NCBI GenBank assembly: GCA_001784175.1
Contig: MFPR01000001.1
Span: 62,001 to 126,000 of the forward strand
Length of the DNA: 64,000 nt
Reading direction: 5' to 3'
DNA from: Candidatus Lindowbacteria bacterium RIFCSPLOWO2_12_FULL_62_27
GTDB taxonomy: Bacteria; Lindowbacteria; 2-12-FULL-62-27
Shown: positions 4,798 through 34,372 of the stretch, piece by piece
Layout: the number at the start of each line of letters is the position of its first letter
How positions within the stretch are numbered: position 1 is the stretch's first letter
Made by a program: the position numbers and the translations under genes
Notes under the pieces: model-generated
Databases searched by the model: none
Told to the model about the DNA's origin: nothing
What the model saw: only the letters and a program-made list of their open reading frames with translations

Positions 4798-7263
4798 CTA
4801 ACCGCGCTTGAGGCCGATCGCGTTCTGAATGAGTTCGTCGGCCGCGCGGATGGCGCGGCTGCTGAATTGGAAGGCGCGCTGGAAAAAGATCAGGTCGGTC
4901 AGTTCATCATCCAGCTTTGAATTCGAATACTCCAGTTTGAAGGGTGAGAGGCGCGAAAGCCCCGCCGGCATCTGATCGATCGATTGGACCACCGGCGCGG
5001 CGGACGCTGCCGTTTCGATGAAGGCCGTGTCGCCCACGCGGCTCAGGCCGCCGGGATTGCGAAACGTGGCGAGGACGAATTGGGCCATGTTTTTCTGCCG
5101 CAGGTTGCTGAACCGGCCGATGACCAGCCCGTTCTCGGCGATCTCGAGCTGGAGGAGGTCCCCCTGGATGTTGCCGTCCACCGCTTCCACGATCGGCTCG
5201 GGCTGTCCCGCGACCTGTGCGAGGTTCGTCAGCGTCGGCGTGATGGTCAGCGCGTTCAACGAGGAATTGGGCGTGAACGTCACGTTCGGCACGCTCGAGT
5301 TGGTGGTGTCGAATTGCCGGTTTGCATCAAAGGCCGCCTTTCCCGAATAGAGATTGGTGGTGCCGGACGTTGCGGAGGCGTCGGTGAACCGGTCGGACGC
5401 GAATTTATAATCGACCAGAAACTTCGTGGTCGATGTGTTGATCTTGTTCGAAAACGACGGCGAAAACGTGATGAGGTTGTCCGACACGTTGTAATGGCCG
5501 ATGGTCGTCTCAAACGTCGCGATGCCCGCGGCGATCGACGAACCCGTCTTGAAGATCATTCCCGGAATGACCTCGTTGCCCGTGTGAATCCCGTACGTCG
5601 TGTCGGCCTTCAGTGTCCCCGCCGCGATCGTGCCGTTCGCGGTCGCCTGGACCTGCCCGACCGGCGTGAAGCTCCAGCTCCCGCTGCCGTCGGCGTTCAC
5701 CGTCAGCGACACGTTGCCGCTCTGGTCGATCGTCGACGTCCAGAACCCGCCGCGCACCGATTCCTTCCGGATGTTCCCGCCGGAGTCGGCGATCACCTGG
5801 GACGAGGCCATCCCCATCGTGGCGTTGTCCGAGGCGCGCTTCATGGTGATCTGATTGGGATCGATGTTCGCATAGGCCTTGATTTGTTTCTGGCCGCTCG
5901 TGATCGTGGCGATGCCGGAATCGGAAAAGGTCTCCTGCGTGAATCCGCTGACCATGTACCCGTAGTCATTCTGCCCGATGTGTTTGAACGTGGTGATCAT
6001 GGTGTGCTGGGTCGTGGGGCTGCTGTCGTCGAAGAGCCCGCCGATCGCCGCAGCCGCGTCGGACTCGTGGTCCGTTTTGAGGATCACCGTCCCGCCGGTG
6101 AGCGCGGTCCCGGCCGTTTTGCGGATCGTGATGCCCGGGATGATGGACGCGGTCGCGCTGTCGGCCGCCGCGAACGTTCCGCTCCCCGACTCGCTGATGA
6201 AACTCTTCCCGTCCGGCACGAACGACCAGGTCACGGCGCCGCTGGCGGCGGTGTTGATCGTCAGCGTGCCGTCCTCCCGGTTCCCGAGATACGCGCCTTC
6301 CACGCTGCTGACGGAACTCGAGTTCGACTGGATGCTGAACGGCCCGACAAGCCCTGTGAAGGACCCGGCCCGCAGGGTGGACACGTCCTGGGTTCGAAAG
6401 GCGACGCCCGGGATGAAATCATGAACTTTGTTCTTCTGGACCATGTTCGCGTCGAAATTGACGAAGTTCTGCGCGTCCGGGATCGTCTGGCCGACTTTCA
6501 AAAACGTCCACGTGCCCGATCCGTCCGCGTTCCATGCAACCTTCAGAATCCCACGGTCCTGATTCTCGTTGAATTTTCCGATCAGGGACTCAAGCTGCGT
6601 GCTGCTGCCGTCTTTCATGACCGTCAGATTGTAGTCCGGGACGTTGGCGTTCAGGCTGCCGCCGATCGAATAGGCTTTCGTCTCGTTGGCCTTGTCGACC
6701 GCCCTCGGGTCGATGGTCAGGTCCGTCACGCTCGTCTGGATGGTCCCATCGCTTTCGTCGGCCAGATATCCGCGCACCACCCATCCCGTGGAGGGGTCGA
6801 CCAGCCGCGGTTTGGTCGTGTACGTCGGGAAGTCGCGCAAAAAGAGCACGCGACCGCCGTCGGTGAACGGGTCGCCGGAGGTGCTGTCGGCCACGCCCGC
6901 GTCGAACACGAAGTGGCCGGCGCGCGTGTAAAAGGTATTGAGGGGCTCGGCCAGGCGCGGATCGCGCAGGACGAAAAATCCCTCGCCGACAATCGCAACG
7001 TCCGAAAACGCGGTCGACGCCTTCACTTCGCCCTGCCGGTGCATCGTATCGATGCTGCTGATGTCAACCCCGTGCCCGGTCTGGACGGGGTTGGCGATCT
7101 CCGTCGCGATGCGATCGGTTCGATTGAAGAGATCGGCAAACGTCGGGCGCTGGGCACGGTATCCCACCGTATTGATGTTCGCGATGTTGTGCCCCAGCAC
7201 GTCAATGCCCGTCTGCTGGGACACCGCCCCATTGTAGCCGATGTAAATGGCTCGATCCACCAT
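4798..7263 (-). CDS. Long flagellar hook/basal-body (FlgE/FlgG family) paralog, about 820 aa
   Basis: N-terminal HNIANINTVGY, DVAIVGEGFF, YTRAGHF; C-terminal FRNPGGL, LEYSN, QRAFQ; start taken at MVDRAIY. Confidence 0.85.
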   Translation of the reverse strand: MVDRAIYIGYNGAVSQQTGIDVLGHNIANINTVGYRAQRPTFADLFNRTDRIATEIANPVQTGHGVDISSIDTMHRQGEVKASTAFSDVAIVGEGFFVLRDPRLAEPLNTFYTRAGHFVFDAGVADSTSGDPFTDGGRVLFLRDFPTYTTKPRLVDPSTGWVVRGYLADESDGTIQTSVTDLTIDPRAVDKANETKAYSIGGSLNANVPDYNLTVMKDGSSTQLESLIGKFNENQDRGILKVAWNADGSGTWTFLKVGQTIPDAQNFVNFDANMVQKNKVHDFIPGVAFRTQDVSTLRAGSFTGLVGPFSIQSNSSSVSSVEGAYLGNREDGTLTINTAASGAVTWSFVPDGKSFISESGSGTFAAADSATASIIPGITIRKTAGTALTGGTVILKTDHESDAAAAIGGLFDDSSPTTQHTMITTFKHIGQNDYGYMVSGFTQETFSDSGIATITSGQKQIKAYANIDPNQITMKRASDNATMGMASSQVIADSGGNIRKESVRGGFWTSTIDQSGNVSLTVNADGSGSWSFTPVGQVQATANGTIAAGTLKADTTYGIHTGNEVIPGMIFKTGSSIAAGIATFETTIGHYNVSDNLITFSPSFSNKINTSTTKFLVDYKFASDRFTDASATSGTTNLYSGKAAFDANRQFDTTNSSVPNVTFTPNSSLNALTITPTLTNLAQVAGQPEPIVEAVDGNIQGDLLQLEIAENGLVIGRFSNLRQKNMAQFVLATFRNPGGLSRVGDTAFIETAASAAPVVQSIDQMPAGLSRLSPFKLEYSNSKLDDELTDLIFFQRAFQFSSRAIRAADELIQNAIGLKRG

Positions 7264-17843: not shown

Positions 17844-19661
17844 ATGGCGACATTGCCCAAACAGCGGCTGAGTTCCAGGGTCCTGCAGATTTCCCTGACC
17901 GTGGCGCTCGCCAGCGTGATTTTCTACGGTCTTTCTGTATTCGCGATCGAGTTCCAGTCCGGTCTCAAGGACGCGCGGATGGAGATGATCAACCGCCTGA
18001 AGGAACTGACGGCGGCGTTCAACCGCGAAGTCCAGCGGCGCCAGACCCGGGTCCGGCTCCTCACGGAAAATCCCCAGGCCTTCGACGCCGCCGTCCAGTC
18101 GATCCGCCGCAGCAAAAAGCCGGAGGCCTTTTTCGGCGACGGCGTCCGCTTCTATCAGATTCTGCATCAAACGGAACTCGAAGCCGGCGGCGCCACGTCC
18201 CTCGAGTTCGAGTCGCTGCTGACCGGGTCGCGCCACGGCGTCCTCAAATTGGTGGAGGGCGTCGACACCGACGCGCGGGCGGGACTGCTCTTTGAGGCCC
18301 ACGCCATGGCGGCCAACCGGGTCCAATCGATCCGGGTCCTCTGGAACGTCGACGCGCTCCTGCCGGCCGTCGATTGGATGTCGAGTCAGCGGGTGGAGGG
18401 GCTGGCGCTGGTCAGGGAAAATGGAAAACCCCTGTGGCTTGCCGGCCAATGGCCCCGGGGCGAGGCGGGGCTTGCGGTTTCAGCGGCGCCTTCGGAATTT
18501 TCCTGGGACGGAAAAACCTGGATCCTGGTAACCGAGGAAATTTCGATCTTCTCCGACCCGGTCCACCTTCGGGCGATCGCGCCCAAATCCCTCCTCTACG
18601 CCCAGGCTTGGCGAATGAGCCGGCGCTTCCTCAACCGCGTCTTCGTCCTCCTCGCCATCGGCCTCGCCCTCGCGGGCCTCCTCGTCGTCGCCACGCGGCA
18701 GGTCATGAAACCGCTCGATGAGGTCACCCGGGGCGTCAACCGCATCGCGGACGGCGATCTCGATACCGTGCTCGAAACATCCGGCGATGACGAGATCGCC
18801 TTTCTCTCGGGACAACTGAACGACCTCGTCCACCGGCTCAAGGTGAAGGAGCAGAGCGTCCAGGCGCATATCCAGCTTCTCAAGGAAAAAAACGACGAGC
18901 TTCAGGCGCTGAGCGACAAATTGAAGGAGGCCGACCGGCTTAAGGATCAGTTCCTGGCGATCCTCAGCCACGAGCTGCGCACCCCTCTGACCGCGATCCT
19001 CGGATACGCCGAGCTTTCCCTCGAAGGCATCTACGGCCCGTTGACGCAGAAACAGACGGAGATCGTCACCTTCATCCACTCCAACGGCCAAAAACTCCTG
19101 ACCCTCATGGAGGACCTCCTCGACATCGCCAAGATCCGCGCGGGAACCATCGAAATCAACATCGAGCCCCTCGATCCTTACGACCTCATGGCCGACATCC
19201 GCAAGTACGCCGAAAATTCGGTCCGGGCCAAATCGGACGTCCGGTTCGTCGAGGACATTCACGCCGGCCTGCCCGGGATTCGGACCGACCGCGTCAAACT
19301 CGAACAAATCCTGACCAACCTCCTGTCGAACGCGATCAAGTTCACCGAGCGCGGCCACGTGGCCCTGTCGGTGACGCGCGAGGGAGACAGCCGCGTGAAG
19401 TTTACGGTGGAGGACACCGGCATCGGAATCGCCCCGGCTCACCTGCCGAAAATTTTTGATCCCTTTGTCCAGCTCGACGCCGGCGTCCGCCGCCGGTACG
19501 GTGGAACCGGCCTGGGATTGACCATTTGCAAGAGTCTGGTCGATAAGTTGGGTGGGCGGATCGAAGTCGAAAGCATCCCGGGCAGCGGAAGCCGGTTTTC
19601 CGTGTGGATGCCCGTGGACAGCCGGCCGGCGCATGATTCTTCGGGAGGACAGGCTGCATGA
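17844..19661 (+). CDS. Membrane sensor histidine kinase (2 TM, HAMP, HisKA, HATPase)
   Basis: SHELRTPL, NLLSNAIKFT, DTGIG, GGTGLGL. Confidence 0.95.
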   Translation: MATLPKQRLSSRVLQISLTVALASVIFYGLSVFAIEFQSGLKDARMEMINRLKELTAAFNREVQRRQTRVRLLTENPQAFDAAVQSIRRSKKPEAFFGDGVRFYQILHQTELEAGGATSLEFESLLTGSRHGVLKLVEGVDTDARAGLLFEAHAMAANRVQSIRVLWNVDALLPAVDWMSSQRVEGLALVRENGKPLWLAGQWPRGEAGLAVSAAPSEFSWDGKTWILVTEEISIFSDPVHLRAIAPKSLLYAQAWRMSRRFLNRVFVLLAIGLALAGLLVVATRQVMKPLDEVTRGVNRIADGDLDTVLETSGDDEIAFLSGQLNDLVHRLKVKEQSVQAHIQLLKEKNDELQALSDKLKEADRLKDQFLAILSHELRTPLTAILGYAELSLEGIYGPLTQKQTEIVTFIHSNGQKLLTLMEDLLDIAKIRAGTIEINIEPLDPYDLMADIRKYAENSVRAKSDVRFVEDIHAGLPGIRTDRVKLEQILTNLLSNAIKFTERGHVALSVTREGDSRVKFTVEDTGIGIAPAHLPKIFDPFVQLDAGVRRRYGGTGLGLTICKSLVDKLGGRIEVESIPGSGSRFSVWMPVDSRPAHDSSGGQAA

Positions 19662-20503
19662 GAGTGCTGGTGATCGACGACGATCTGCACATTCAGCGGA
19701 TCGTGGAGGACCGGTTGAAGGCGGAGAATTTTGAAATCCTGAAAGCCTCGGATGGAATCGAGGGCCTGCGGATGGTCTATGATTTCCATCCCGACGTCGT
19801 CCTCCTCGACATCATGATGCCCACCATCGACGGCACGGCCGTCCTTCACTGCATCAAGAAAGACGACAAGATCAAGAACATCCCCATCATCATGATGACC
19901 GCCAAACGCGAACGCGCCGACGTCATGCAGGCCGCCGCCGCCGGCGCCGCCGAATACATCGTCAAGCCGATCGATTTCAGGCAAATGGTCAAGAAAATCT
20001 ATGAGGTGACGCACGCCGCGCCGCCCAAACCCAGGGAAAAGGCCGGACCGCTCAACATCAAGGCCATGGCAACCGACCTCGCCAATCTCTCTTTCGAAAT
20101 GGAGGCCATCGCCGCATCCGCCGGCATCAAGGTCGAGCGACCCCTGCCGGAGACGAAGGGCAGCGGACTGAACATCAAGGTCGACACCGCCCCCGGCGGC
20201 GTGGCGTGCCTGCAATTCGGCGGCGCGCTTCACACAGAGGACGCGGATTCGATCCGCAGCGAGTTGACACGGCTCATTGCCGCCAACGTCTCCAAATTCG
20301 TGGTCGACATCAGCGACATCCAGAGCCTGGACCTCACCGAGGTCATGATCCTCAAGGACGTGATGAACCTCATCTCCCGCAACCAGTACGCCGCCCGGCT
20401 GGTCGAAACCGACGGCAAGCGCCGCCGGTTCCTCCGCCAGTGCAACCTGCATCTCGAGTATACCCTCTTTGACAGCCGCGACGAGGCCCTCCGCTCCTTT
20501 TAG
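19658..20503 (+). CDS. Response regulator with C-terminal STAS-like domain
   Basis: VIDDD, LLDIMMP, KP; C-terminal FGGAL...FVVDISDIQSLD...FDSRDEAL. Confidence 0.8.
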   Translation: MRVLVIDDDLHIQRIVEDRLKAENFEILKASDGIEGLRMVYDFHPDVVLLDIMMPTIDGTAVLHCIKKDDKIKNIPIIMMTAKRERADVMQAAAAGAAEYIVKPIDFRQMVKKIYEVTHAAPPKPREKAGPLNIKAMATDLANLSFEMEAIAASAGIKVERPLPETKGSGLNIKVDTAPGGVACLQFGGALHTEDADSIRSELTRLIAANVSKFVVDISDIQSLDLTEVMILKDVMNLISRNQYAARLVETDGKRRRFLRQCNLHLEYTLFDSRDEALRSF

Positions 20504-21495: not shown

Positions 21496-22839
21496 ATGGC
21501 GGCGCCAACCGTTGATCAGATCAAGAAAATGCGGGAGGAGTATCTCCTCCCGTCGACCATGACCTACTTTGAGCGGCCGGTCAACATCGTCCGCGGGCAG
21601 ATGCAGTACGTGTACGACGACCAGGGCAGGAAGTACATGGACGCCTTCAGCGCCGTCGTGACCATCAGCGTCGGCCACTGCCATCCCGATGTTGTATCCA
21701 AAATCCAGAGGCAGGTCGGCCAGCTCCAGCATATGACCACGCTTTACTATCATCCCAACATTGTGCAGTACGCGAAGAAAATGCACGAGATGGCCGGCGG
21801 CGGCGACCTCAAGGTCAGCTTCTTCACCAATTCCGGCTGCGAGGCCAATGAACTGGCGGCCATACTCGCCAAGAACCACACCAAGCAGCAGGAATTCATC
21901 GCCCTCCGCCATTCCTTTCACGGCCGCACCCTCATGGCCATGACCCTGACCGGCCAGTCCTCCTGGCGCCACTCCATGCCCTACGTCTTCGGCGTGACCC
22001 ACGCGCCCAACGCCTACTGCTATCGCTGTCCGCTCAAGCTCAAGTACCCGTCGTGCGGCGTCGCCTGCGCCACGCAGGTCGAGGACATCATCAAGTACAA
22101 CACGTCCGGCCGCATCGCCGGATTCATCGCTGAGCCCATCGCCGGATTCGGCGGCGTCATCCATCCGCCCAAGGAATATTTTCCCATCATCGCCGACATC
22201 GTCAAAAAACACGGCGGCGTATACATCTCCGACGAGGTCCAGACCGGATTCGGCAGAACCGGGAAACACTTTTTCGGCATCAGCCACTGGGGCGTCAAGC
22301 CCGACATCGTGACGATGGCCAAAGGCATCGGCAACGGCGTGCCCCTCGGCGGCATCATCACCACGCGGGCCATCGCCGAGTCGATGCGCGGCAAGGTCCA
22401 TTTCAACACGTATGGCGGCAACCCCGTTTCGATGGCCGCCGGACTGGCCGTCCTCGAGGTCATCGAGCGGTACAACATGGTCCGCAACGCCGACTCGGTC
22501 GGGACCTACCTCAAGTCCCGGCTGCTCTCGATTTCAAACCGCCACCCTGTGATCGGCGATGTGCGCGGGCTGGGACTCATGCTGGGCGTGGAACTCGTGA
22601 AAAACCGGAAGACCAAGGAAGTCGCCCCGAAGGAAACTTTGCGGCTCATGGAGCTGTGCAAGGACCGGGGTCTTTTGATCGGCAAGGGCGGGATGGCCGG
22701 CAACGTCGTCCGGATCAAACCTCCGATGTGCGTCACGCGGAGAGACGCCGACTTCATCGTCGGCGTCCTGGACGAGTCTCTCGGCGTCATGGAAAAGGAA
22801 TTTCGGATCCGACGCCCCGCCGCTTCGCGAAAACGATAA
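21496..22839 (+). CDS. Class III PLP aminotransferase (AGXT2/beta-alanine aminotransferase-like)
   Basis: NSGCEANE, SDEVQTGFGRTG, MAKGIGNG, HFNTYGGNP; SD AGGAGG. Confidence 0.9.
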   Translation: MAAPTVDQIKKMREEYLLPSTMTYFERPVNIVRGQMQYVYDDQGRKYMDAFSAVVTISVGHCHPDVVSKIQRQVGQLQHMTTLYYHPNIVQYAKKMHEMAGGGDLKVSFFTNSGCEANELAAILAKNHTKQQEFIALRHSFHGRTLMAMTLTGQSSWRHSMPYVFGVTHAPNAYCYRCPLKLKYPSCGVACATQVEDIIKYNTSGRIAGFIAEPIAGFGGVIHPPKEYFPIIADIVKKHGGVYISDEVQTGFGRTGKHFFGISHWGVKPDIVTMAKGIGNGVPLGGIITTRAIAESMRGKVHFNTYGGNPVSMAAGLAVLEVIERYNMVRNADSVGTYLKSRLLSISNRHPVIGDVRGLGLMLGVELVKNRKTKEVAPKETLRLMELCKDRGLLIGKGGMAGNVVRIKPPMCVTRRDADFIVGVLDESLGVMEKEFRIRRPAASRKR

Positions 22840-23351
22840 ACCGGAGTCTCCCCCTGGCCTTCTGCCTCGCCCTCGCGGCTGCCGGGTGCGAGGCCGAGCC
22901 TCCATCGGGCGGTGTCGGCGCTGGCGCCCCCGCGCCGGCCACGGCCCGTGGCGCCGCATCCTCGACCGGCCACGAGCCCGCGCTTTCGGTCCGCGCGGAC
23001 GGGGCGGCCAGAAAAATGTTCCTCCAAGGTCTGCGCGCCATCCAGCGGCGTGATTACCCGGCGGCCACCGCATTCTTTCAGCAGGCGGAAGAACGCCACA
23101 GCCGGCGCTCAGGCGCGCCGGACGAATTCATCTACGGATGCCTCTATTACATCGGCCGGTGCCGTGAAGGCACACTCAGTTTCGAGGAAGCTCGCGACAT
23201 CTACGCGCATGTCCCGGCCGAAAGCGCCTACCGGCCGTGGGTGGAACTCCGCATGTCCGCCATGTCCCAGGATTCCGACGGCGACGGCTACATCGACGCA
23301 TGGGAAGACGCCGAGGGAACCAATCCGATGAACCCACTGGCGCACCCCTAG
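22836..23351 (+). CDS. Putative lipoprotein with TPR-like repeat and C-terminal DxDxDG Ca-binding motif
   Basis: Lipobox LAAAG-C; YYIGRC...EEARDIY; DSDGDGYIDAWE..GTNP; start codon unclear. Confidence 0.65.
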   Translation: MNRSLPLAFCLALAAAGCEAEPPSGGVGAGAPAPATARGAASSTGHEPALSVRADGAARKMFLQGLRAIQRRDYPAATAFFQQAEERHSRRSGAPDEFIYGCLYYIGRCREGTLSFEEARDIYAHVPAESAYRPWVELRMSAMSQDSDGDGYIDAWEDAEGTNPMNPLAHP

Positions 23352-26300
23352 ATGGCCCGGCGCCCCGCGCTCCCGGGACAGCGCGCCGCACAGATCGCGG
23401 CCCTTAAAAAGCATCTTCGCACCCTCCTCATCGGACTTGCCATCGGCGTGGTCAGTGGTGTGATGGTGATGGTCCTGGGATCCTTCGAGGAGGGATTTGT
23501 TGCGCGCACGGAACTCTTGCTCCTGGATGTCCGCTATCGAACGCGGCCCCACATTCCCGTCCATCCGGACGTCGCCCTGATCAACTACGACGACGCCTCC
23601 CTCGCGCTCTTCGGAGGCTGGCCATGGCCGCGGCACCGGCAGGTCGCGCTCGTGACCGTGCTCGATCTCTACGACGCCCGGGCTGCCGGCTACGACGTGT
23701 TTTTCTCGGAACGAAATGACATCATCGTCATGGATGAGCGGCTCCGCCAGTTTGTCCGCAGCGACGAGGTCGCCAAGGGTCGGCCGGCGCCCGAACGCGT
23801 GTCCCGTGTGCTCCGGACCGCCATCCGCGACTACGACCGCGAGTTCGAACGGGCCATCGCGAAGTCCGGGAACATCTATCTCGGATATTTTGTCCAGGAG
23901 CCCGACAAGACCGTCGCCGTCGGGGGACTTCCGGCGATCCAGAAATATGTCGAGGAAGACAAGAAATCGCCCACCTATCCCCACGAGGCCCTGGAATCGC
24001 TCGCGCCCCACACCATCGCGGCCACACCCGACTTGGAAAAACATATTTTCAAAATGAGCCGCGTCGTCCCGCCGCTGTCCTTCCATACGCGCGCGGCCCG
24101 CAGCGCGGGATTCGCGCAGATCGTCAAGGACCTCGACCACACGGTGCGGCTCTACCCCATGTTCATGTACTACGACGGCAAAATCCATCCGTCGATCGGG
24201 TGCGTCATGGTGGCCAGCGTCACCGGCGTTCCGCTCGACCGCTGGGTCATCAAGCCCGGCGAATACGTGGAACTGCCCGACGCCAAAGTCCCGGGCGAGA
24301 CCAACCCCGTCACCATCCGCATTCCCGTCAACGAAAACGGGCAGATGCTCATGAACTGGGCCGCCAAATTCGACGACGTCTTCCTCCACGTGTCCTTCCG
24401 GCTCATCTCCGAATACTATGCCTATCACACCGCCAAGGGCCTGGCGCGAAATTATCCGGCGGACCCCGCGGCCTTCGGGGCGATCTACGCGGACATCGTC
24501 AGTTCCATCGATGAGGAGCAGATGGTGACCGAAGAGGAATCCCGGCGCATCGCGGGCGAAATTGCCCTCGCGCACATCGCAACGCCCATGTTGAAAGCCG
24601 GCGCGACGCACGCCGACATCCTCTCCCGGCTCAAACTTCCCGACGGGGTCGCGGCGCCGGAGCAGGTCCTCCAGGCCGTCGACATCGCGTTGCAAAAATC
24701 CGGCGGCGCGGCCTTCGACGCCGCGTGGCAGGCCGAGATCGAGCGGAATGTGAGCTGGTTTGTGGCCAAAAATCGGTTGAACGAAGTCGAGCCTCTCTTT
24801 TTTCCGCCCGCACGCACCGCGCTCTGGCAGGGCAAACAGACGGCATTCTCTCCACTCGACCTCGAGAACAAGATTTTCATGATCGGACTCACCGGCGTCG
24901 GGACCATCGACCTCAACCCCATGCCGTTCGAAAGCGTTTCGCCCATGGTCGGCATGCACTCCAATGCGCTCAACACCATGCTGGCCCACACCTTTCTCAA
25001 GTTCCCCAAGGACTCATGGCGCTATCCGCTCGACATGGTCTTCGCGATCGTGACCGCCGTCGTCGGAGCCCTCACGTCGCCCTTCATCGGGTTTCTCGTC
25101 GTGACCCTCATCGTCGCCGGATACAGCTACGCCGTCTGGTGGGCCTTTGCCGCGCACGGCCAGTGGATCCAGTGGCTGGAGCCCGTCATGGCGATCTCGC
25201 TGACCTACATCGGCGTCGTCGTCTACCATTTCATCCAGGCCCGGCGCGAAAAGGGCAAGGTCCGGGCCATCTTCGCCGCCATGGTCTCGCCCGACGTCCT
25301 GAAATACATGGAGGAACATCCGGAAAGCTTTTCGCTCACGGGTGTCCGGAAGGCCGGCACGACCTTTTTCTCGTCCGTCGAGCGTTTCGGAAAGGTCACC
25401 GCGGGCGTCGCGCCGGACGAACTCGGGGGAATTCTCAGTTATTATCTGACGCCGACCAGCGAGATCATCATGGACTATCAGGGGTACATCGACAAGTATG
25501 AAGGCCACGTCATCATGGCCGATTTCGGCGTCCCCATCGACGACCCCGGGCACGCCTGGAAGTGCTGCTACGCCGCGATCGAGCAGCAGCAGGACATCCT
25601 GCCGTTCCAGTTTTTCGTCAAGGCGCGCTACGGCGTCGACGTCTTCGTCGCCATGGGCATCAATTCCGGTTACGTCTCGGCCGGAAACATGGGATCGGAA
25701 AAGAAAATGCAGTACACCGTCATGGGTGACGCCGTCAATATGTCGGCCCGGTTCAGGCCCGCCAACAACATCTACGACACGCGCATCATCGCCGGCGAAC
25801 CGACGCTCCCCTTCGCCGGTGACTGCCTGGAACTCCGGCTCCTCGACAAACTGCTGGCCAAGGGCAAAACCAAGCCGGCCACCATCTACGAAATCCAGGG
25901 ATGGAATCCCAAGTCCTACCTCGAACTCAAAAAGGACGCGCCCGTTCCGCCGTCCCTCTTGTCACGATGGTCCAAGTGCCCGGCGGAAAAGATATTCGGC
26001 TATCACCGGTTCTGGCAGCAGAAGGAAAAGGATTTCGCGCATCCGCTGATTCCGAAAATCCGCGAGTTCTTCGAGTCCCAGCTTGCGGTCGCCGAGGAAA
26101 TGATCAAGGTGGAGGGGCGGTCGGAAGTGCGGAAATACTGCACGGAACTCTACGGCGTCCGCGACGAGGCCGCCATCGTGCTCGGCAAGAAGGTGGACGG
26201 GATGGCGGCGCCCGGAAAACCCTGGGATGTGATTCTGGACAAATGGATTTCGACCGCGTCGGAGATCCACCGCGCGCTCGAGGAAAGCCGGCAACTGGCC

Positions 26301-26831
26301 GGGCAGAGCCCCGAGATTTACAAGGCCTACGTGTCCTCGTTTTCCCGCGCCGCGACCTTGACCAACAAGCTCGAGACCCTGAAGGCCCGGCTGGCGTTTC
26401 ATGCCGAAACGGAATCGGTGATGGAACGATTCATCGTCGACATGCACGAATCCATTGAGAAAACCGCCGAAGCCGGCGAATCAGCGCCCGCCCCGGACGG
26501 GACCGAACTCGAAACCAAACGCGCCGCCTACCGCTCCGCCGTCCAGGGCATCTACGACAGCCTGGCGGCCAAACCCGCCGAGTACCATGAGATGATGTCG
26601 CAGGTGGGCTCGGTCACCGAATCCCAGAAAAAGGCCCGTGAGATTTTCGTTGAGGGCGTGAACCTCCACTGGGAGCGAAAATGGGACGAATCGATCGAGA
26701 AGTTCCGCGCCGTGCTGGACATCATGCCGGCGGATGGCCCGTCCAAATCCTACATCGAACGCGTCCACGGATACAAAACCGACCCGCCCGGCGACAAGTG
26801 GCAGGGCGAATTCGTGCAGAAGAAGAAATAG
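23352..26831 (+). CDS. CHASE2-domain class III adenylyl cyclase subunit A (C2-like: lacks metal Asp, keeps K/T/N/R)
   Basis: CHASE2 (GGWPWPR, DVFFSE, DLDHTVR), 3 TM, cyclase core FSSVERF / DKYEGH / YTVMGDAVNMSAR, C-terminal DGPS...PP...W.G tail. Confidence 0.9.
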   Translation: MARRPALPGQRAAQIAALKKHLRTLLIGLAIGVVSGVMVMVLGSFEEGFVARTELLLLDVRYRTRPHIPVHPDVALINYDDASLALFGGWPWPRHRQVALVTVLDLYDARAAGYDVFFSERNDIIVMDERLRQFVRSDEVAKGRPAPERVSRVLRTAIRDYDREFERAIAKSGNIYLGYFVQEPDKTVAVGGLPAIQKYVEEDKKSPTYPHEALESLAPHTIAATPDLEKHIFKMSRVVPPLSFHTRAARSAGFAQIVKDLDHTVRLYPMFMYYDGKIHPSIGCVMVASVTGVPLDRWVIKPGEYVELPDAKVPGETNPVTIRIPVNENGQMLMNWAAKFDDVFLHVSFRLISEYYAYHTAKGLARNYPADPAAFGAIYADIVSSIDEEQMVTEEESRRIAGEIALAHIATPMLKAGATHADILSRLKLPDGVAAPEQVLQAVDIALQKSGGAAFDAAWQAEIERNVSWFVAKNRLNEVEPLFFPPARTALWQGKQTAFSPLDLENKIFMIGLTGVGTIDLNPMPFESVSPMVGMHSNALNTMLAHTFLKFPKDSWRYPLDMVFAIVTAVVGALTSPFIGFLVVTLIVAGYSYAVWWAFAAHGQWIQWLEPVMAISLTYIGVVVYHFIQARREKGKVRAIFAAMVSPDVLKYMEEHPESFSLTGVRKAGTTFFSSVERFGKVTAGVAPDELGGILSYYLTPTSEIIMDYQGYIDKYEGHVIMADFGVPIDDPGHAWKCCYAAIEQQQDILPFQFFVKARYGVDVFVAMGINSGYVSAGNMGSEKKMQYTVMGDAVNMSARFRPANNIYDTRIIAGEPTLPFAGDCLELRLLDKLLAKGKTKPATIYEIQGWNPKSYLELKKDAPVPPSLLSRWSKCPAEKIFGYHRFWQQKEKDFAHPLIPKIREFFESQLAVAEEMIKVEGRSEVRKYCTELYGVRDEAAIVLGKKVDGMAAPGKPWDVILDKWISTASEIHRALEESRQLAGQSPEIYKAYVSSFSRAATLTNKLETLKARLAFHAETESVMERFIVDMHESIEKTAEAGESAPAPDGTELETKRAAYRSAVQGIYDSLAAKPAEYHEMMSQVGSVTESQKKAREIFVEGVNLHWERKWDESIEKFRAVLDIMPADGPSKSYIERVHGYKTDPPGDKWQGEFVQKKK

Positions 26832-26833
26832 AG

Positions 26834-29800
26834 ATGGCCGAAAAAGAGAAGGCGCGGAAAGTTCCGCCGGTCAAGGTCGCGATCATTGGTCTTACCTGCG
26901 CCGCCGCCGTCGGCGTCCTCACTTGGCTCGGCGTCTTTCAGAAGGTCGAACTTGAGCTGAACAAGCAGCGGTACGTTCACCGGCCGGCCATCGACATCGA
27001 CACGACCATCTTCACGATCGACATCGACGATCCCTCCATCGACCAGATCGGACGCTGGCCCTGGACTTGGGACCGGCACGCCGTCATCCTCGACCTCGCG
27101 TGGCTCTACGACTCCCGCCGCGTCGCATTCGTCGAACCCTATTTCAGCGAGCCCGGCCCCATCACTGTCCAGACCCCGCAGGCCCGGCAGATCGCGCTCA
27201 GCCTCTCGCAGTTGGCCCAGGGCAAGACCGACGTGGACTACCGGACGGAGCTGGAAGGGCAGATCCCCGACTTCAACCGCCGGTTCCTCAAGGCGGTCGA
27301 GCGGTTTCCCGCCACCTTCATCGGAAACAGCTTTGCCATTCCTGAAGGCCCGGCCGCGGAGGATGTGCGGAAGATCCGGCAGATGTCCGAGTCCTACAAG
27401 GCGCATTACTCGCTCGCGAAAAAACAGGCCATCGCCTCACTCGACTCCTGTTCCATTCTCCGGCCCGATCCCGCCTCCCTCCTCGTCGCGGCGGACATCG
27501 TGCCCGTCACGGCCGACCTCTCTCGCCGCATCGCCGGCGCGGGATTCATGCGCATCATCCAGGACGTCGACGGCGTCGTCCGCCGCACGCCCCTCCTCGT
27601 CTGGTACGACGGCCGCGCGCATCCGAGCATCGCGCTCTCCATGGCCGCCGATTATTTTGGATGCCCTCTGGACAGGATTCGCATCCATCCCGGAAAATAC
27701 GTCGAGATCCCCGGCCGGGACCGCACCGTCCGCGTGCCCATCGACCGCAAGGGCAACCTGCTGATCAACTGGGCCGGAAAATATCAGGACACCTTCTTCC
27801 ATCTCCCCTACATCGTCATCGCCCACCATTACGCGCATCGGCTGGCCAAGAGATTCGTCCGGCAGTTCACCCTGGGGCTCGACAACCCGCAGGACGTCAT
27901 GCAAAAAATGGCCGAGTTCCTCACGCGCCAGCGCCTCGTCCCGGCCGAGGACGTGGAGCGTACCACGCAGGAGATCATTCTCGTGTGGCTGATGGATTTC
28001 TTCATCGACCGAAACGCCCCCTACGAGGCCTTTCTGGCCAACACCGGGATTGAGCACAGTGACGGCCTGAGGTTCTGGTGGGACCAGTTGTCCGTCAACA
28101 AGCGCACCGAGGACATGCTGCGGTCCGGCCAGGACCCCAACTACTCCGCCATTCTGGTCAGCCTCGGCCTCAAGGACACGGACATCTACCGGGACGGCGT
28201 CCGGCAGACGGCGTTTTTCTTCCGCAACGGCAAGATCAACGACGTGCGGCCCCTGATGTTCATGGAGCCGAGCACGATCGACGTGAGCGGCGTCGAGATG
28301 AAATTCAGCCCGATGGACCTCACCGGCAAAACCGTCTTTGTCGGGCTCACCGCCACCGGCCTGAACGCCTTCAACCCGATCCCCTACCAGCAGCGATACC
28401 AGATGTTCGGCATGATCCCCAACGTGTACAACACCATCGTCACAGAGCAATTCTTGCGCGCCCAGTCGCCCTGGATGCAGTACCTCTACATCATCCTCTA
28501 CGCGCTCGCCGTGACCTGGATCGTCCTCCATGTGCGGCCCCTCATGGGATTCGGCGTGACGGTCCTGACCTCGGCCGTCCACATCGGCGCGGCGTGGCTT
28601 CTCTTCATCTTCGCCGGCGTCGCCATCCCGGTCTTCGCGCCAGTCCTGACCGTCGTGATCTGTTACGTGTCGGCCATGCTGTACCGCTACGTGCAGGAGC
28701 AGCGGGAGCGGCAGAAGGTGCGGAACATGTTCGGCGCGATGGTGTCGCCAGAGGTATTGAAGATGATGGAGACGAAGGGCGTGGCGCTGACGGGCGAGAA
28801 GCACGAGGCGACGATGTTTTCCTCGGACGTGTCCGGATTCACGACCATCTCCGAGGGCGTCACCGCGCAGGAGCTGGCCGACATCCTGAACATCTACCTC
28901 ACGCCGATGAGCAACATCATCATGAACTTCGACGGCTTCGTCGACAAGTACGAGGGCGACGCCATCAAGGCCGATTACGGCATCCCCATCATCGACCCCA
29001 ACCACGCCTGGAAAGGGTGCCTCTCCGCGCTCCTTCAGCAGGAGGACCTCCGCGTCATCCAGCGGCTGCTCCTCCTCAAGTACGGCGTCAAGATCACCGC
29101 GCGGATGGGCGTCAACACCGGCGTCGTCGCCGCCGGCAACATGGGCTCCGAGAAAAAAATGCAGTACACCGTCATGGGCGAAGCCGTCACCCTCGCCGAG
29201 GAACTCGAGCCGATCAACAAACTCTACGAAAGCTGGATCGCCATCGGCCCGCTCACCTACGAGAAGGCGAGGGACTACGTCGAGGTCCGGTACTTGGACC
29301 GCGCCCTCATGGGTCCCTCCGCGCACCCGACCGAAGTGTATGAGCTCATGGGCTGGAGGCGGGAAAAGTTTCTCGAGCACTGGAACGGCAGGCCGGTCCC
29401 GCCGCTGTTCATCGAGGCCTGGCGGAAACTGACGCCGGAAAAAATTCTCGGATACATCTATTACTGGGACGAAAAAAAATTCAATGACACGCCCTTTTAC
29501 CGCGACCTCCGCGGGCTCTTTGACAAACTCGCGCCTTTGTCGATCGAAACCGTCAAGATGAACGACATCGCCGGGGTCCACTCCCTGCGGGTGGAACTCG
29601 CCGAGCTCGACAAGGCGATCCAGGCCTACGACAATCTTCTCTCCGGTATGACGCTCGACCGCATCTCGCAGTCGGAACTGGACGACTTCAAGGCCCAGGA
29701 GGCGAAGGCGGCCGAGGACTGGCTGAAAACGCTGTGGGGGTGGAAAGTCAAACTCAAACAGAACCAGTTCGCCGTTCAGTACCTGCAGGGCAAAATCCCG

Positions 29801-30301
29801 CACGAGAATTACGAGGAACTCCTCCGGTTCGTCGATACGCACCAGAAGCGTGTCGAGTGCTGCATCAAGCGCAGCTCGTTTCCCAAGCCCGAAGACACCG
29901 TCGGATGGGAGTTTGCCGTTCACCTCAAGTCCCTCGTGGTCGACGGGAAATCCGGCGTGGACCCCGCAGCCGCCAAGGCCAAATCCGAGGAGCTGCTCGG
30001 GAAAAGCCGGGAACTGGTCGCGGCCTTTCTCGAAAAACTCCCGAAACGCGCCGCCGAATTCCACGAGTTCATCGCCGACCACTGCATCGTTCCCGCCTAC
30101 AAGTTCAAGGTCCGGGACCGGTTCGACGAGGCGCGCAAGCTCTATCTGAAAATGGACTGGGACGCCGCCGAAAAGGCCTTCCAGGCGGTCCTCGAGATCG
30201 ATCCCAAGGACGGCCCGGCGACCAAATTCATCGAACGCATCGGCCACCTGCGCAAACACCCGCCGGCGCCCGATTGGAACGGAGACTGGGCGGAGGAATA
30301 G
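26834..30301 (+). CDS. CHASE2-domain class III adenylyl cyclase subunit B (C1-like: keeps both Asp, lacks N/R)
   Basis: CHASE2 (GRWPW, DVDGVVRR), 3 TM, core FSSDVSGFT / DKYEGDA / YTVMGEAVTLAEE; ATG 2 nt after the subunit A stop. Confidence 0.9.
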   Translation: MAEKEKARKVPPVKVAIIGLTCAAAVGVLTWLGVFQKVELELNKQRYVHRPAIDIDTTIFTIDIDDPSIDQIGRWPWTWDRHAVILDLAWLYDSRRVAFVEPYFSEPGPITVQTPQARQIALSLSQLAQGKTDVDYRTELEGQIPDFNRRFLKAVERFPATFIGNSFAIPEGPAAEDVRKIRQMSESYKAHYSLAKKQAIASLDSCSILRPDPASLLVAADIVPVTADLSRRIAGAGFMRIIQDVDGVVRRTPLLVWYDGRAHPSIALSMAADYFGCPLDRIRIHPGKYVEIPGRDRTVRVPIDRKGNLLINWAGKYQDTFFHLPYIVIAHHYAHRLAKRFVRQFTLGLDNPQDVMQKMAEFLTRQRLVPAEDVERTTQEIILVWLMDFFIDRNAPYEAFLANTGIEHSDGLRFWWDQLSVNKRTEDMLRSGQDPNYSAILVSLGLKDTDIYRDGVRQTAFFFRNGKINDVRPLMFMEPSTIDVSGVEMKFSPMDLTGKTVFVGLTATGLNAFNPIPYQQRYQMFGMIPNVYNTIVTEQFLRAQSPWMQYLYIILYALAVTWIVLHVRPLMGFGVTVLTSAVHIGAAWLLFIFAGVAIPVFAPVLTVVICYVSAMLYRYVQEQRERQKVRNMFGAMVSPEVLKMMETKGVALTGEKHEATMFSSDVSGFTTISEGVTAQELADILNIYLTPMSNIIMNFDGFVDKYEGDAIKADYGIPIIDPNHAWKGCLSALLQQEDLRVIQRLLLLKYGVKITARMGVNTGVVAAGNMGSEKKMQYTVMGEAVTLAEELEPINKLYESWIAIGPLTYEKARDYVEVRYLDRALMGPSAHPTEVYELMGWRREKFLEHWNGRPVPPLFIEAWRKLTPEKILGYIYYWDEKKFNDTPFYRDLRGLFDKLAPLSIETVKMNDIAGVHSLRVELAELDKAIQAYDNLLSGMTLDRISQSELDDFKAQEAKAAEDWLKTLWGWKVKLKQNQFAVQYLQGKIPHENYEELLRFVDTHQKRVECCIKRSSFPKPEDTVGWEFAVHLKSLVVDGKSGVDPAAAKAKSEELLGKSRELVAAFLEKLPKRAAEFHEFIADHCIVPAYKFKVRDRFDEARKLYLKMDWDAAEKAFQAVLEIDPKDGPATKFIERIGHLRKHPPAPDWNGDWAEE

Positions 30302-30328: not shown

Positions 30329-30352
30329 GCCGCTCTTGACTTTTTGACTTTT
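30329..30352. repeat. Solo copy of the RAYT-flanking repeat
   Basis: GCCGCTCTTGACTTTTTGACTTTT, identical to 36297-36320, between convergent genes. Confidence 0.85.
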
Positions 30353-30918
30353 TACAGGATTTCCCGGTAAACTTCCTCCCGTGGATTCGGAATCACAACC
30401 TTGTTGACCAGCAGGCCCTTCTCGGCGATGATCTCCGCGCCCGCGTCGATCGCCGCGTTGACGTCGTCCAGCGAGCCGCACATCGTGACGAAGGCCTTTC
30501 CGCCCAAGGCCATCGCAAGGCGGATTTCAATGAGGTCGACGTCCGCCGCCTTCACGCTCGCGTCCGCTGCCTCGATCAGGGACGCGACGCTGAAACTCTC
30601 CAATATCCCCAGCGCCTCCGTGTCCCGAACGCTCGACATGCCCCGGATCGCCGGCACGACCTTGTCGTGGACGTTCGGAATGATGAAATCGTCGATCAGC
30701 GTGTAGTCGGCCGTTTCCCGGCCCGCACCCACCGCGCGCTCCACCGCGCCGGTCGAGCCCGTCACCAGGACCATGTACTTGCCGGAACAGATGGTCCGCG
30801 ACAGCAGAAGCTCCACGTTCCCGCTCTTGAGCATCGTGTCCGCCGTCTTGAAGCCGGACGCGATGCTCGATAGTTCAATGATGCCGATCGCCTCCCGCAT
30901 GGGAGATGTCTCAGCCAT
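30352..30918 (-). CDS. pduT: Tandem BMC shell protein, PduT-like (BMC-T)
   Basis: AIGIIELSSIASG, TICSGKY (Fe-S Cys), second domain ALGILE...LGGKAF. Confidence 0.88.
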   Translation of the reverse strand: MAETSPMREAIGIIELSSIASGFKTADTMLKSGNVELLLSRTICSGKYMVLVTGSTGAVERAVGAGRETADYTLIDDFIIPNVHDKVVPAIRGMSSVRDTEALGILESFSVASLIEAADASVKAADVDLIEIRLAMALGGKAFVTMCGSLDDVNAAIDAGAEIIAEKGLLVNKVVIPNPREEVYREIL

Positions 30919-30920
30919 GG

Positions 30921-32249
30921 CTACTCCCTCTCAATCACAATATCGCCGTTCACGGATGTGACCCGGCCCGAAATCGACGCGTGGATCGGCGCGCCCATCT
31001 GCCCTTCCGGCATCACCGCCACCGCCTGCCCCCGCTTCACGCGGTCGCCCGGCCGCACCGCCGGCGCCGCGGCTTGGCCGACATGCTGCTTGAGCGGCAA
31101 CGTCACGCGGTCCGGCTGATAGTTCGTCTCGACGTACGGCGCGGGCACGTCCCATTCCGTAAGGCCGAGCCGCCGCGTCAGGCGATCCAGCGGCAGCCGG
31201 CGAAACTGGAACATCGGATGCGGCTTGTATCCTTTGCGTGGGTTGAAGTCCTGCGGTTTCGCGCCTTCCTTGATTTTTTCGGCCCTCGTTGACCAACTGA
31301 TGATGTGCGGGTCCAGATCCTCGGGGCACGCAAAAAGCCCGCAGACGCCGCAGTGCACGCAGGCCAGCGCAAAATCGCTCTCGAGCTTCCAGCCGCTGCC
31401 GGTCAGCCCGAGCGTCCGCATCACGCGGTGCGGCTCGATCGGGTGGCCGATCAGATATCGCGGACAGAACTCCGTGCAGTAGGAACACTGGTCGCACGCC
31501 GATTTGCCGATGCGATTAAAGGCCTGCGGCTTTCTCGATTTTTTTTGTTCAAGGTAATGCCCGATGGGCACCGCGATATACCCCCCGCAGGATTTGGTCA
31601 CAATGTCTTCAAGATCGTACGTGAGCTTGCCCATCATCGCGCCGCCGTTCAAAAACGCGCATTCCGGAAACGTCAGCCCCCCCGCAAGATCCACGATCTC
31701 GCGCAGCCGCACCCCCACGGGCACTTTCACCGTCATCGGCCGCCGCACCGCGCCGGCAATCGTCAGATATTTTTCCGTGACCGGCTCGCCGCTCGCGTCG
31801 GCCCGATAGACGTTGAGCAGTGTCTCCACGTTCGAAACGACGCAGCCGACCTGGAGCGGAATTCCGCCGGGCGGAATCACGCGGCCGGTGACCTCATACA
31901 CGAGCACAAACTCGTCCCCGGCGGGATAGTAGGAGCCCATGAGAAACAGCTCCACGCCCGGACGCCCGCGCAGAACCTTCTCGAACGCCTCGACCGCGTC
32001 GTGCGCCTTCTTCTTGAGCGCAATCACGCCCTTGTCCGCCCCGACCTGCCGCATCACCAGCTCCACGCCCTTGACGATCTCCTCCGCCTTCAGGCGCATG
32101 ACCTCCTTGTCCTTGTACAGAAGCGGCTCGCACTCGGCTCCGTTGGCGATCACATATTCGGCCTTCGCGTTGTATTTCACGTAAGCCGGAAACCCGGCCC
32201 CGCCGGCCCCGACCACCCCGGCGGTCTTCACTTGATCAACGAGCGCCAT
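30921..32249 (-). CDS. pduS: PduS-like flavin/Fe-S oxidoreductase
   Basis: GVVGAGGAGFP, NGAECEP, YPAGDE, SLBB, CDQCSYCTEFCP and CVHCGVC...CP, C-terminal LKQHVG...IHASISG barrel. Confidence 0.87.
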   Translation of the reverse strand: MALVDQVKTAGVVGAGGAGFPAYVKYNAKAEYVIANGAECEPLLYKDKEVMRLKAEEIVKGVELVMRQVGADKGVIALKKKAHDAVEAFEKVLRGRPGVELFLMGSYYPAGDEFVLVYEVTGRVIPPGGIPLQVGCVVSNVETLLNVYRADASGEPVTEKYLTIAGAVRRPMTVKVPVGVRLREIVDLAGGLTFPECAFLNGGAMMGKLTYDLEDIVTKSCGGYIAVPIGHYLEQKKSRKPQAFNRIGKSACDQCSYCTEFCPRYLIGHPIEPHRVMRTLGLTGSGWKLESDFALACVHCGVCGLFACPEDLDPHIISWSTRAEKIKEGAKPQDFNPRKGYKPHPMFQFRRLPLDRLTRRLGLTEWDVPAPYVETNYQPDRVTLPLKQHVGQAAAPAVRPGDRVKRGQAVAVMPEGQMGAPIHASISGRVTSVNGDIVIERE

Positions 32250-33595: not shown

Positions 33596-33646
33596 ATGGT
33601 AAGTGCAACCGCGCAATTTGACAAGCGGCGGTCCCGCCGATACAGT
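33596..33646. promoter_or_regulatory. Divergent sigma70 promoters with overlapping -35 boxes
   Basis: + strand TTGACA(33618)-N17-TACAGT; - strand TTGTCA(33624)-N17-TACCAT. Confidence 0.65.
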
Positions 33647-33655
33647 GGTAACGCC

Positions 33656-34372
33656 ATGAGCCGATCAACGAATCCCTCCCGGCGCGGCCGGGACGACGCG
33701 ATTACGCCGCTTTCGGGCGACGCTGCCCAGTATTATCTGTGCCAAGCGGGCCGAATCTTCGGCCCGATCGAACTCACCGCCATTGCGACTTGGATCGGCG
33801 AAAATCGGGTGACGCCGAGGGATTGGGTCTTCGTGCCGTCCCTCTGCGACTGGGCGCCGATTCTGGAAGTCCCGGAAATGGCCGGATGCTTTTACAACCC
33901 GTCCGACAAGCCGATCGGCCCGCCGCCGGGAATGCCGGTGGAGGCGTATCTCAAGTATTATCGCGCCCAGCAGGAGGCCGCACCGGAGGCGGAGGCGCCG
34001 CAACGGGTCGAAAAGCGCCAGTGGGTCCGTATCCCGCTCCACACCACGATGACGTTCCGGGAAATCAGGGACGGCGCGGCCAAACCCGCCGAGCGGCATC
34101 AGGCCTATACGGTAAACATTTCAGAAGGAGGACTCGCGTTTGAGTGGTCGGCTGCGATTGCGACAAAAACAGCCATCGAAGTGAGAGTCGACTTCTATCC
34201 AACGACACTCCGCGCCGATGCCGCGGTGGCGCACTGTGACCCCAAGGAGGCCGGCACGTATCAGATCGGCGCCGCGTTCAAGAATCTGCCGCAGACCGAA
34301 CGCGACAAGATCCGCCACTTCGTCCGGGCCTGCATCCGCACCGCCTCGAACGCCACACCGCCGCCTGTGTAA
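33656..34372 (+). CDS. GYF_2-like + PilZ domain protein
   Basis: IFGP...W..I.EVPE; PilZ RQWVR and NISEGG. Confidence 0.78.
   Translation: MSRSTNPSRRGRDDAITPLSGDAAQYYLCQAGRIFGPIELTAIATWIGENRVTPRDWVFVPSLCDWAPILEVPEMAGCFYNPSDKPIGPPPGMPVEAYLKYYRAQQEAAPEAEAPQRVEKRQWVRIPLHTTMTFREIRDGAAKPAERHQAYTVNISEGGLAFEWSAAIATKTAIEVRVDFYPTTLRADAAVAHCDPKEAGTYQIGAAFKNLPQTERDKIRHFVRACIRTASNATPPPV

Follow-up and report, generated by a model that had tools for sequence, protein, structure and literature searches.

Here we describe two adjacent genes, A and B, in the genome of Candidatus Lindowbacteria bacterium RIFCSPLOWO2_12_FULL_62_27, whose products most probably form a single membrane receptor adenylyl cyclase as an obligate heterodimer in which one site is active and the other remodelled. 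The genes lie in a stretch of 64,000 nucleotides (NCBI GenBank assembly GCA_001784175.1, contig MFPR01000001.1, positions 62,001 to 126,000 of the forward strand), hereafter the window, whose numbering is used throughout unless another genome or locus is named. The genome of 4.39 Mb in 44 contigs has 13 cyclase-domain matches, and the two genes in question are arranged as follows.

23352-26831, plus strand: gene A (C2-like subunit), 1159 residues; a transmembrane helix, periplasmic CHASE2, three transmembrane helices, a class III cyclase domain and a helical C-terminal extension
26834-30301, plus strand: gene B (C1-like subunit), 1155 residues; same architecture as A, with the ATG 2 nt past the stop of A

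An initial annotation of this DNA had described the paralogues as full length, alike in architecture and 2 nt apart, and the open reading frames (ORFs), the Pfam matches and an identity of 30% over the full length bear this out. Pfam recognizes CHASE2 in both proteins (E 7.9e-32 in A and 1.4e-27 in B) as well as the Guanylate_cyc domain PF00211, with 31.1 bits in A and 39.2 bits in B against a curated cut-off of 21.9. The closest sequence of solved structure is CyaB of P. aeruginosa (3r5g; E 1.2e-19 for A and 1.6e-25 for B). An alternative, longer in-frame ORF for gene B opens at 26681; the start at 26834 is the fitting one, since B orthologues are 1156-1161 residues long. The layout of a CHASE2 receptor cyclase was found in A by Pfam and by the predicted structure, with concurring hydropathy peaks. 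The full-length model of A (predicted local distance difference test, pLDDT, 88.2; predicted template-modelling score, pTM, 0.58) is divided into the following segments.

A residues 8-44: transmembrane helix
A residues 49-545: periplasmic CHASE2 with a helical insert
A residues 554-642: three transmembrane helices
A residues 665-851: cyclase
A residues 853-1143: helical extension

Inspection of the cyclase domains revealed that the catalytic residues are split reciprocally between the two proteins.

25344-25904, plus strand: cyclase domain of A, residues 665-851
Lost in A: metal Asp 1, replaced by S675 (25374, TCC); metal Asp 2, replaced by H719 (25506, CAC); phosphate Arg, replaced by A767 (25650); the beta1-alpha1 loop motif (675-684)
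Retained in A: K715 (25494), T789 (25716), N796 (25737), R800 (25749) and K837-G838-K839 (25860-25868)
28796-29356, plus strand: cyclase domain of B, residues about 655-841
Retained in B: D665 (28826, GAC), K705 (28946), D709 (28958, GAC), R757 (29102) and the complete beta1-alpha1 loop (FSSDVSGFTTISE)
Lost in B: Asn, replaced by T786 (29189); Arg, replaced by E790 (29201); the KGK motif, replaced by G827-P828-S829

In the alignment with CyaB, the two Asp stand opposite S675 and H719 of A, and the Asn and Arg stand opposite T786 and E790 of B. The complete catalytic set (two Asp, Lys, Asp/Thr, Asn and Arg) is present in neither protomer and is complete only across A and B. According to Table 1 of PMC6005667, the eight key cyclase residues are Asp396, Asp440 and Arg484 in C1 and Lys938, Asp1018, Asn1025, Arg1029 and Lys1065 in C2. 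Judged by aligned positions and motifs, the C1 set is in B and the C2 set in A. The matches to mammalian chains in the Protein Data Bank (PDB) fall accordingly, those of A in C2 regions (1175-1251 of adenylyl cyclase 5, AC5; 1089-1124 of AC8; 324-418 of soluble adenylyl cyclase, sAC) and the PDB matches of B in C1 regions (AC5 464-613, AC8 416-543, AC9 392-524 and VC1), with a further B match to the alpha subunit of soluble guanylyl cyclase (sGC). The reciprocal split had been claimed for six residues; all six, together with their codon coordinates, were exact by a scripted check, and the claim was too narrow in that the split covers eight known catalytic positions, the Arg484-type and Lys1065-type residues included.

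PMC6005667 gives the rule that a pair of Lys and Asp/Thr denotes an adenylyl cyclase. The adenine-type Lys-Thr pair, K715 and T789 of A, sits on the subunit supplying Asn and Arg, so that the substrate would be ATP and the product most likely cyclic AMP (cAMP). T779 of B (29168) is conserved in no more than 70% of B-types.

The split is strictly kept among relatives. Protein searches with the C-terminal 600 residues (E <= 1e-20) gave 161 matches to A and 1131 to B; the best 120 of the 161 and the best 120 of the 1131, pooled into 232 proteins, comprised 74 A-type, 80 B-type and 78 complete sequences, with none mixed or damaged on both halves. All A-types have K, T, N and R (74/74), and K837, G838 and K839 are likewise without exception (56/56); their first Asp position varies freely (S, M, A, L, K, G or W), and His fills the second in 64 of 74. 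All B-types have D, K and D, with Glu always at the Arg position (both 80/80); E789 and E790 are invariant (60/60), and the Asn position varies freely (T, A, H, S, K or R). A column-by-column comparison of the three classes, covering columns at least 85% conserved in the 78 complete relatives, found position 675, loop 676-684, position 719 and position 767 lost solely in A, and the positions of N796, R800, D793 and K837-G838-K839 (A numbering) lost solely in B. The position shared by A767 and B R757 is Arg in 100% of B-types and complete enzymes. Random, non-reciprocal decay among orthologues, which the initial annotation had named as speaking against the pairing, was seen in 0 of the 232 relatives. 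Given the invariance of the retained residues and the lack of mixed proteins among these 232, the pattern is the one expected from selection on one shared site rather than from decay.

The same counts bear on whether B could be a weakly active homodimer that A, as a non-catalytic regulatory pseudo-enzyme, modulates or titrates. Pseudo-enzyme regulators are common in signalling, and B does retain both metal Asp, the phosphate Arg, Lys and Thr. However, a mere regulator would need neither the K, T, N and R nor the KGK motif that A-types keep without exception, which are exactly what B lacks. The Asn, Arg and KGK motif missing from B are all catalytic in other class III enzymes (Table 1, PMC6005667). 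We thus regard a homodimer of B under the control of A as very unlikely, and the residue pattern suggests instead that neither homodimer would be active.

The pair is also linked in the genome. A linkage scan with one genome per species returned 78 loci: a B-type gene lies directly downstream on the same strand at 35 of the 39 A-type loci, and a second cyclase occurs at none of the 39 complete-enzyme loci. Adjacent CHASE2-cyclase pairs with the reciprocal pattern, which the initial annotation had pointed to as something to be sought in other genomes, are thus found 35 times in several labelled phyla. The depositor labels of the loci are Lindowbacteria, Hydrogenedentota, Nitrospirota (including magnetotactic lineages), Syntrophales, Planctomycetota and Dependentiae. 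Within the family of the organism, the A-then-B tandem occurs in 4/4 genomes, and the three others have A/K/H/T/N/R in A and D/K/D/T/T/E in B. The split is an old, widespread two-gene family, not private to one genome. Among the four A loci that have no adjacent B, two (L050 and L070) end right after A, and two (L064 and L072) have about 6 kb downstream without B; a whole-genome follow-up found a B-type gene opening another contig in genome G043. No A-B fusion was found among candidates of up to about 2020 residues, the longer class, where a fusion of about 2300 residues would fall, lying beyond that search. A 2042-residue open frame in G003 was considered as a fusion and ruled out by a TAG between two genes.

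Twenty-six further cyclase domains, mostly of CHASE2 cyclases and taken both from the present genome and from outside its family, are all complete. The nine other single-domain cyclases of the present genome likewise have all six residues considered in the initial annotation, which makes A and B its only single-domain cyclases with half a site and leaves neither with another defective partner there. Two further cyclase genes were observed in passing. The present genome encodes, outside the window (G000:C30:106812-107876; loci L012 and L013), a 1300-residue ORF with two tandem cyclase domains, a layout like that of sAC, between which the catalytic residues look split in a rough alignment. In a Nitrospirota locus (L069, 1785-4601), a third cyclase gene of 939 residues with D, K, D, D, N and R and a very long branch lies just upstream of A-B.

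The history of the split was examined in a quick IQ-TREE tree of 111 cyclase domains, with a midpoint root only. The tree left out a frameshifted locus (L075), most of the near-identical complete loci L088-L125 (those with numbers divisible by 4 were kept), duplicates of the three same-family loci and four distant cyclases of the genome. The 39 long A-types form one clade (support 100 in the Shimodaira-Hasegawa-like approximate likelihood-ratio test, SH-aLRT), the 35 long B-types form another (99), and the two are sister clades (97). Together they fall inside the complete CHASE2 cyclases, of which a 1064-residue Planctomycetota enzyme and a 750-residue Marinimicrobia group are closest to them. 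Distances among A subunits correlate with those among their B partners (r = 0.90 over 34 pairs; 0 of 2000 permutations as high). The sister clades and this correlation are consistent with one duplication, followed by reciprocal loss and co-inheritance. The tree gives no common descent with the eukaryotic C1/C2 split (class IIIa), A and B being each other's closest relatives. With the sister pair placed inside complete cyclases of the bacterial CHASE2 type, the likeness to C1/C2 is convergent, in agreement with the proposal of the initial annotation that the split arose independently of the heterodimer logic of eukaryotic adenylyl cyclase (AC) and sGC.

Linkage and co-inheritance also weigh on the view that A and B pair promiscuously with the complete cyclases of the cell, giving several mixed dimers. 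Complete single-domain class III partners are at hand, nine of them in this genome, and A and B are unlinked in two genomes. Against this stand the adjacency at 35 of 39 loci with a fixed order, the congruent trees and the C-terminal helical insert of both subunits, exclusive to the A/B family (see below); moreover, a complete partner would leave the strictly reciprocal losses unexplained. We see only a slim chance for such mixed dimers and favour the dedicated A/B pair.

The cyclase domains are the best conserved part of both proteins, with family identities of 78-81% in A and 77-87% in B. The ratios of nonsynonymous to synonymous substitution rates (dN/dS), which are rough because dS is about 1, are 0.13-0.16 for the cyclase domain of A and 0.10-0.22 for that of B, against 0.22-0.47 for the CHASE2, transmembrane and C-terminal regions. 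Purifying selection, which the initial annotation had raised as a check, is thus strongest on both cyclase domains, where dN/dS is lowest in each protein. These values bear on the idea that A and B are decayed receptors, neither of which makes a cyclic nucleotide, kept for scaffolding, ligand binding or another non-enzymatic task. Each protein singly does lack residues needed for catalysis, but the cyclase domains are the most conserved ones, and the retained catalytic residues are invariant across phyla and sum to exactly one full site. We therefore hold decayed receptors to be extremely improbable and return to a shared active site.

Judging from a second, shorter pair, bacterial CHASE2 cyclases have probably come to this division of residues two or more times. 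Genome G030 (locus L044, 4921-8991) has an A-type gene of 689 residues followed, after 12 nt, by a B-type gene of 662 residues. The A-type has S, K, E, T, N and R, the B-type keeps D and D with Asn replaced by Ile and Arg by Glu, and the pair has no C-terminal extension. Adjacent match pairs also occur in four other genomes of the same phylum (G060, G087, G075 and G099; loci L139-L142). In the tree, the two G030 genes are each other's sister on long branches (support 95), away from the long A and B clades. A constraint that put all 40 A-types in a single clade, a group chosen after the tree was seen, was rejected (log-likelihood difference 87.7; approximately unbiased, AU, test p-AU 0.00012). 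The placement in the tree and the AU rejection point to a separate, convergent origin of the G030 pair.

Structure prediction is consistent with physical association. A complex of A 636-862 and B 626-852 with ATP and two Mg was modelled; it scored an ipSAE (an interface score derived from predicted aligned errors) of 0.86, 0.86 and 0.84, compared with 0.00 for the best of 3 controls. The ipSAE mark applied is reached by 58 of 80 solved complexes and by 2 of 110 mismatched pairs. The runs agreed in at least 84% of contacts, with a partner pLDDT of at least 86. In the model, N796 of A contacts residues 669, 670 and 673 of B, T789 contacts 706 and K715 contacts 707, all adjoining the two Asp of B. 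The A/B model, one of the multimer models suggested by the initial annotation, thus passes its controls.

Several points nevertheless weigh against an obligate heterodimer, or against the evidence for it. The complex model does not discriminate A/B from A/A or B/B, and it resembles many solved class III dimers, so that the pass may stem from this likeness. The classified sets hold the best matches of each query and the dN/dS ratios are rough, as stated above. The equivalences of R757 with Arg484 and of KGK with Lys1065 are drawn from motif position and the CyaB alignment rather than from a direct alignment with the mammalian chains. In two genomes, G041 (L064/L128) and G042 (L072/L127), A and B are on separate contigs, and genes other than B follow A; the B-type of G042 is partial, and both proteins of G041 are atypical, with S, K, N, T, N and R in A and D/K/D/S/E/K in B. 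In G044, where A sits at a contig end, no B was found genome-wide. A is split by a frameshift at locus L075, and the open frame of B at locus L068 has just 645 residues, opening about 1.5 kb past the end of A.

The sequence and model data together enable us to propose a putative mechanism for the A/B pair. B, as the C1-like subunit, would bind the metals through its two Asp and add the beta1-alpha1 phosphate loop and the Arg of Arg484 type. A, as the C2-like subunit, would specify adenine through its Lys and Thr and add the Asn for the ribose, the Arg for the transition state and the Lys of Lys1065 type. A complete site would thus form solely in a head-to-tail A/B dimer, and the pseudo-symmetric second site, in which S675, H719 and A767 of A would face K705, T779, T786 and E790 of B, is predicted to be non-catalytic. 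The design would have originated by one duplication of a complete CHASE2 cyclase and reciprocal loss, and would since have been inherited as an A-then-B pair. An AND-gate over the two CHASE2 sensors, as imagined in the initial annotation, would be compatible with this arrangement.

The second, dead site has new conserved residues, namely His719 in A and Glu789-Glu790, Lys712 and Ser663 in B. One clade lacks the His of A, having A, V or T there (L079, L080, L084 and L085, of Thermodesulfovibrionales type), and its B subunits have His or Arg at the former Asn position in 4/4 pairs, a feature of 0/30 other pairs. The loss of His in A and the gain of His or Arg in B may be a compensation within the dead site; as this covariation is a single evolutionary event, it only hints that these residues face each other. 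It is conceivable, if doubtful, that the dead site has been rebuilt as a conserved pocket (His719 of A, present in 88% of A-types, against the invariant Glu789-Glu790 and Lys712 and the retained Lys705 of B) that binds a nucleotide or ligand allosterically or locks the heterodimer, and that the two diverged CHASE2 sensors and a helical domain of about 200 residues let the enzyme compute on two periplasmic inputs, in a design evolved at least twice.

That helical domain belongs to the C-terminal extension, which is present in both subunits and was modelled for A.

25908-26828, plus strand: C-terminal extension of A, residues 853-1159; all-helical, with an insert of about 200 residues and a TPR-like tail

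Folded alone, the extension of A reaches a pLDDT of 94.6. A Foldseek search of the PDB found nothing at E <= 0.001 (best 0.076, TM-score 0.18), and in VIA-align only residues 229-291 of the extension model match TPR units, with a Z of about 9 that lies in the range common for helical repeats. The last 90-125 residues of the extension are common to shorter complete CHASE2 cyclases. The insert of about 200 residues that precedes this tail occurs only at the C-termini of A/B-family proteins (about 1100-1290 residues) or in fragments, and both A and B carry it.

When all ORFs up to 4 kb from the pair were compared with one another across 40 loci, no neighbour was present in more than 7 loci, and hence no conserved third partner emerged; the conserved unit is the A-B pair itself. 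The gene directly upstream in the window is the following.

22656-23351, plus strand: predicted small lipoprotein ORF with a lipobox-like LAAAGC and a C-terminal TSP3_bac repeat (Pfam E 3e-07)

Its stop abuts the ATG of gene A, and its true start is uncertain, probably later than 22656. A similar ORF (5297-5992) lies directly before gene A at the same-family locus L049, overlapping the likely ATG of A by manual count. In the neighbour comparison, the upstream lipoprotein is common to the organism's own family only. The TSP3 lipoprotein could be a periplasmic accessory of the CHASE2 sensors. Other genes nearby were noted as follows, the response regulator and the PilZ protein being further second-messenger or partner-switch components.

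19658-20503, plus strand, upstream: response regulator fused to a STAS domain; not conserved with the cyclase pair
30352-32249, minus strand, directly downstream: shell protein with tandem BMC domains, and RnfC/Nuo51-like Fe-S flavoprotein; possible margin of a bacterial microcompartment locus
33596-34372, plus strand, downstream: PilZ protein with a GYF-like domain; not conserved with the cyclase pair

Among the sequencing runs listed as covering 25300-28900, none is an RNA run, and the 10 DNA runs are groundwater or soil metagenomes.

The arrangement departs from the general description of bacterial enzymes. A 2022 review has bacterial class III cyclases homodimerise (PMC9552081), and the reviews consulted assign two equivalent sites to these homodimers and describe the heterodimer with one active site for animal adenylyl and soluble guanylyl cyclases. 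In PMC4681086, the products of R. centenum gcyB and gcyC are called 'putative guanylyl cyclase subunits' and 'non-catalytic subunits', and they are annotated as hypothetical proteins. The literature searched yielded no description of a natural bacterial heterodimeric class III cyclase, though non-open reviews (e.g. Linder and Schultz) or PMC2447327 (a 2004 actinobacterial survey) may discuss heterodimers of incomplete cyclases. Class III chemistry and the C1/C2 logic are known; a widespread two-gene bacterial CHASE2 receptor form would be new. If it is true, and evolved at least twice, the asymmetry of one active site would be a recurrent, selectable solution and not a eukaryotic peculiarity. 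A bacterial two-gene version would offer a simple system for asking why the asymmetry of one catalytic and one regulatory site is selected, and a test of how two different periplasmic sensors feed one catalytic centre. The cytosolic domains of A and B are small, which makes the prediction directly testable in E. coli. The pair also carries a warning for annotation, as A or B singly looks like a dead cyclase and per-genome cyclase counts would misjudge signalling capacity.

Among known systems, the pair most readily invites comparison with the C1/C2 core of mammalian membrane AC (VC1:IIC2, PDB 1AZS and 1CJK; AC5, 8SL3). As in the mammalian core, a head-to-tail interface with one catalytic and one degenerate site is predicted for the pair; B corresponds to the C1 set (Asp, Asp and Arg484-type) and A to the C2 set (Lys, Asp/Thr, Asn, Arg and Lys1065-type), and Lys and Thr are still present in the metal-binding subunit B, as in mammalian C1. 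Unlike the mammalian enzyme, which is one chain with 2 x 6 transmembrane helices, A and B are two genes and polypeptides with CHASE2 as sensor and 1+3 transmembrane helices each. Their base pair is of the Lys-Thr type, which we take to be class IIIb, and their origin is independent, without G-protein or forskolin biology. sGC alpha/beta shares with them two genes, homologous subunits each with its own sensor-type N-terminal domains, split residues and, as predicted for A and B, one active and one pseudo-symmetric site (PMC6005667 and PMC3591389). It differs in being eukaryotic, soluble and GTP-specific (Glu/Cys) with H-NOX, PAS and coiled-coil regions, whereas A and B are membrane-bound with CHASE2 and Lys/Thr. 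Chytrid RGC/NeoR are described, in PMC8815786 and PMC10622942, as receptor cyclases that are heterodimers of two paralogous sensor-cyclase subunits with differing sensor properties. They are eukaryotic, with rhodopsin sensors and cGMP as product, and the likeness is drawn from descriptions rather than from a comparison of catalytic residues. The CHASE2-transmembrane-cyclase layout itself is that of Synechocystis Cya2, a CHASE2 guanylyl cyclase (PMC6005667). Cya2, CyaB and M. tuberculosis Rv1625c, unlike A and B, have all catalytic residues in each protomer and two equivalent sites. In 2001, Guo et al. reportedly restored activity by mixing Rv1625c mutants with complementary lesions, and the A/B pair would be the natural counterpart of this engineered complementation.

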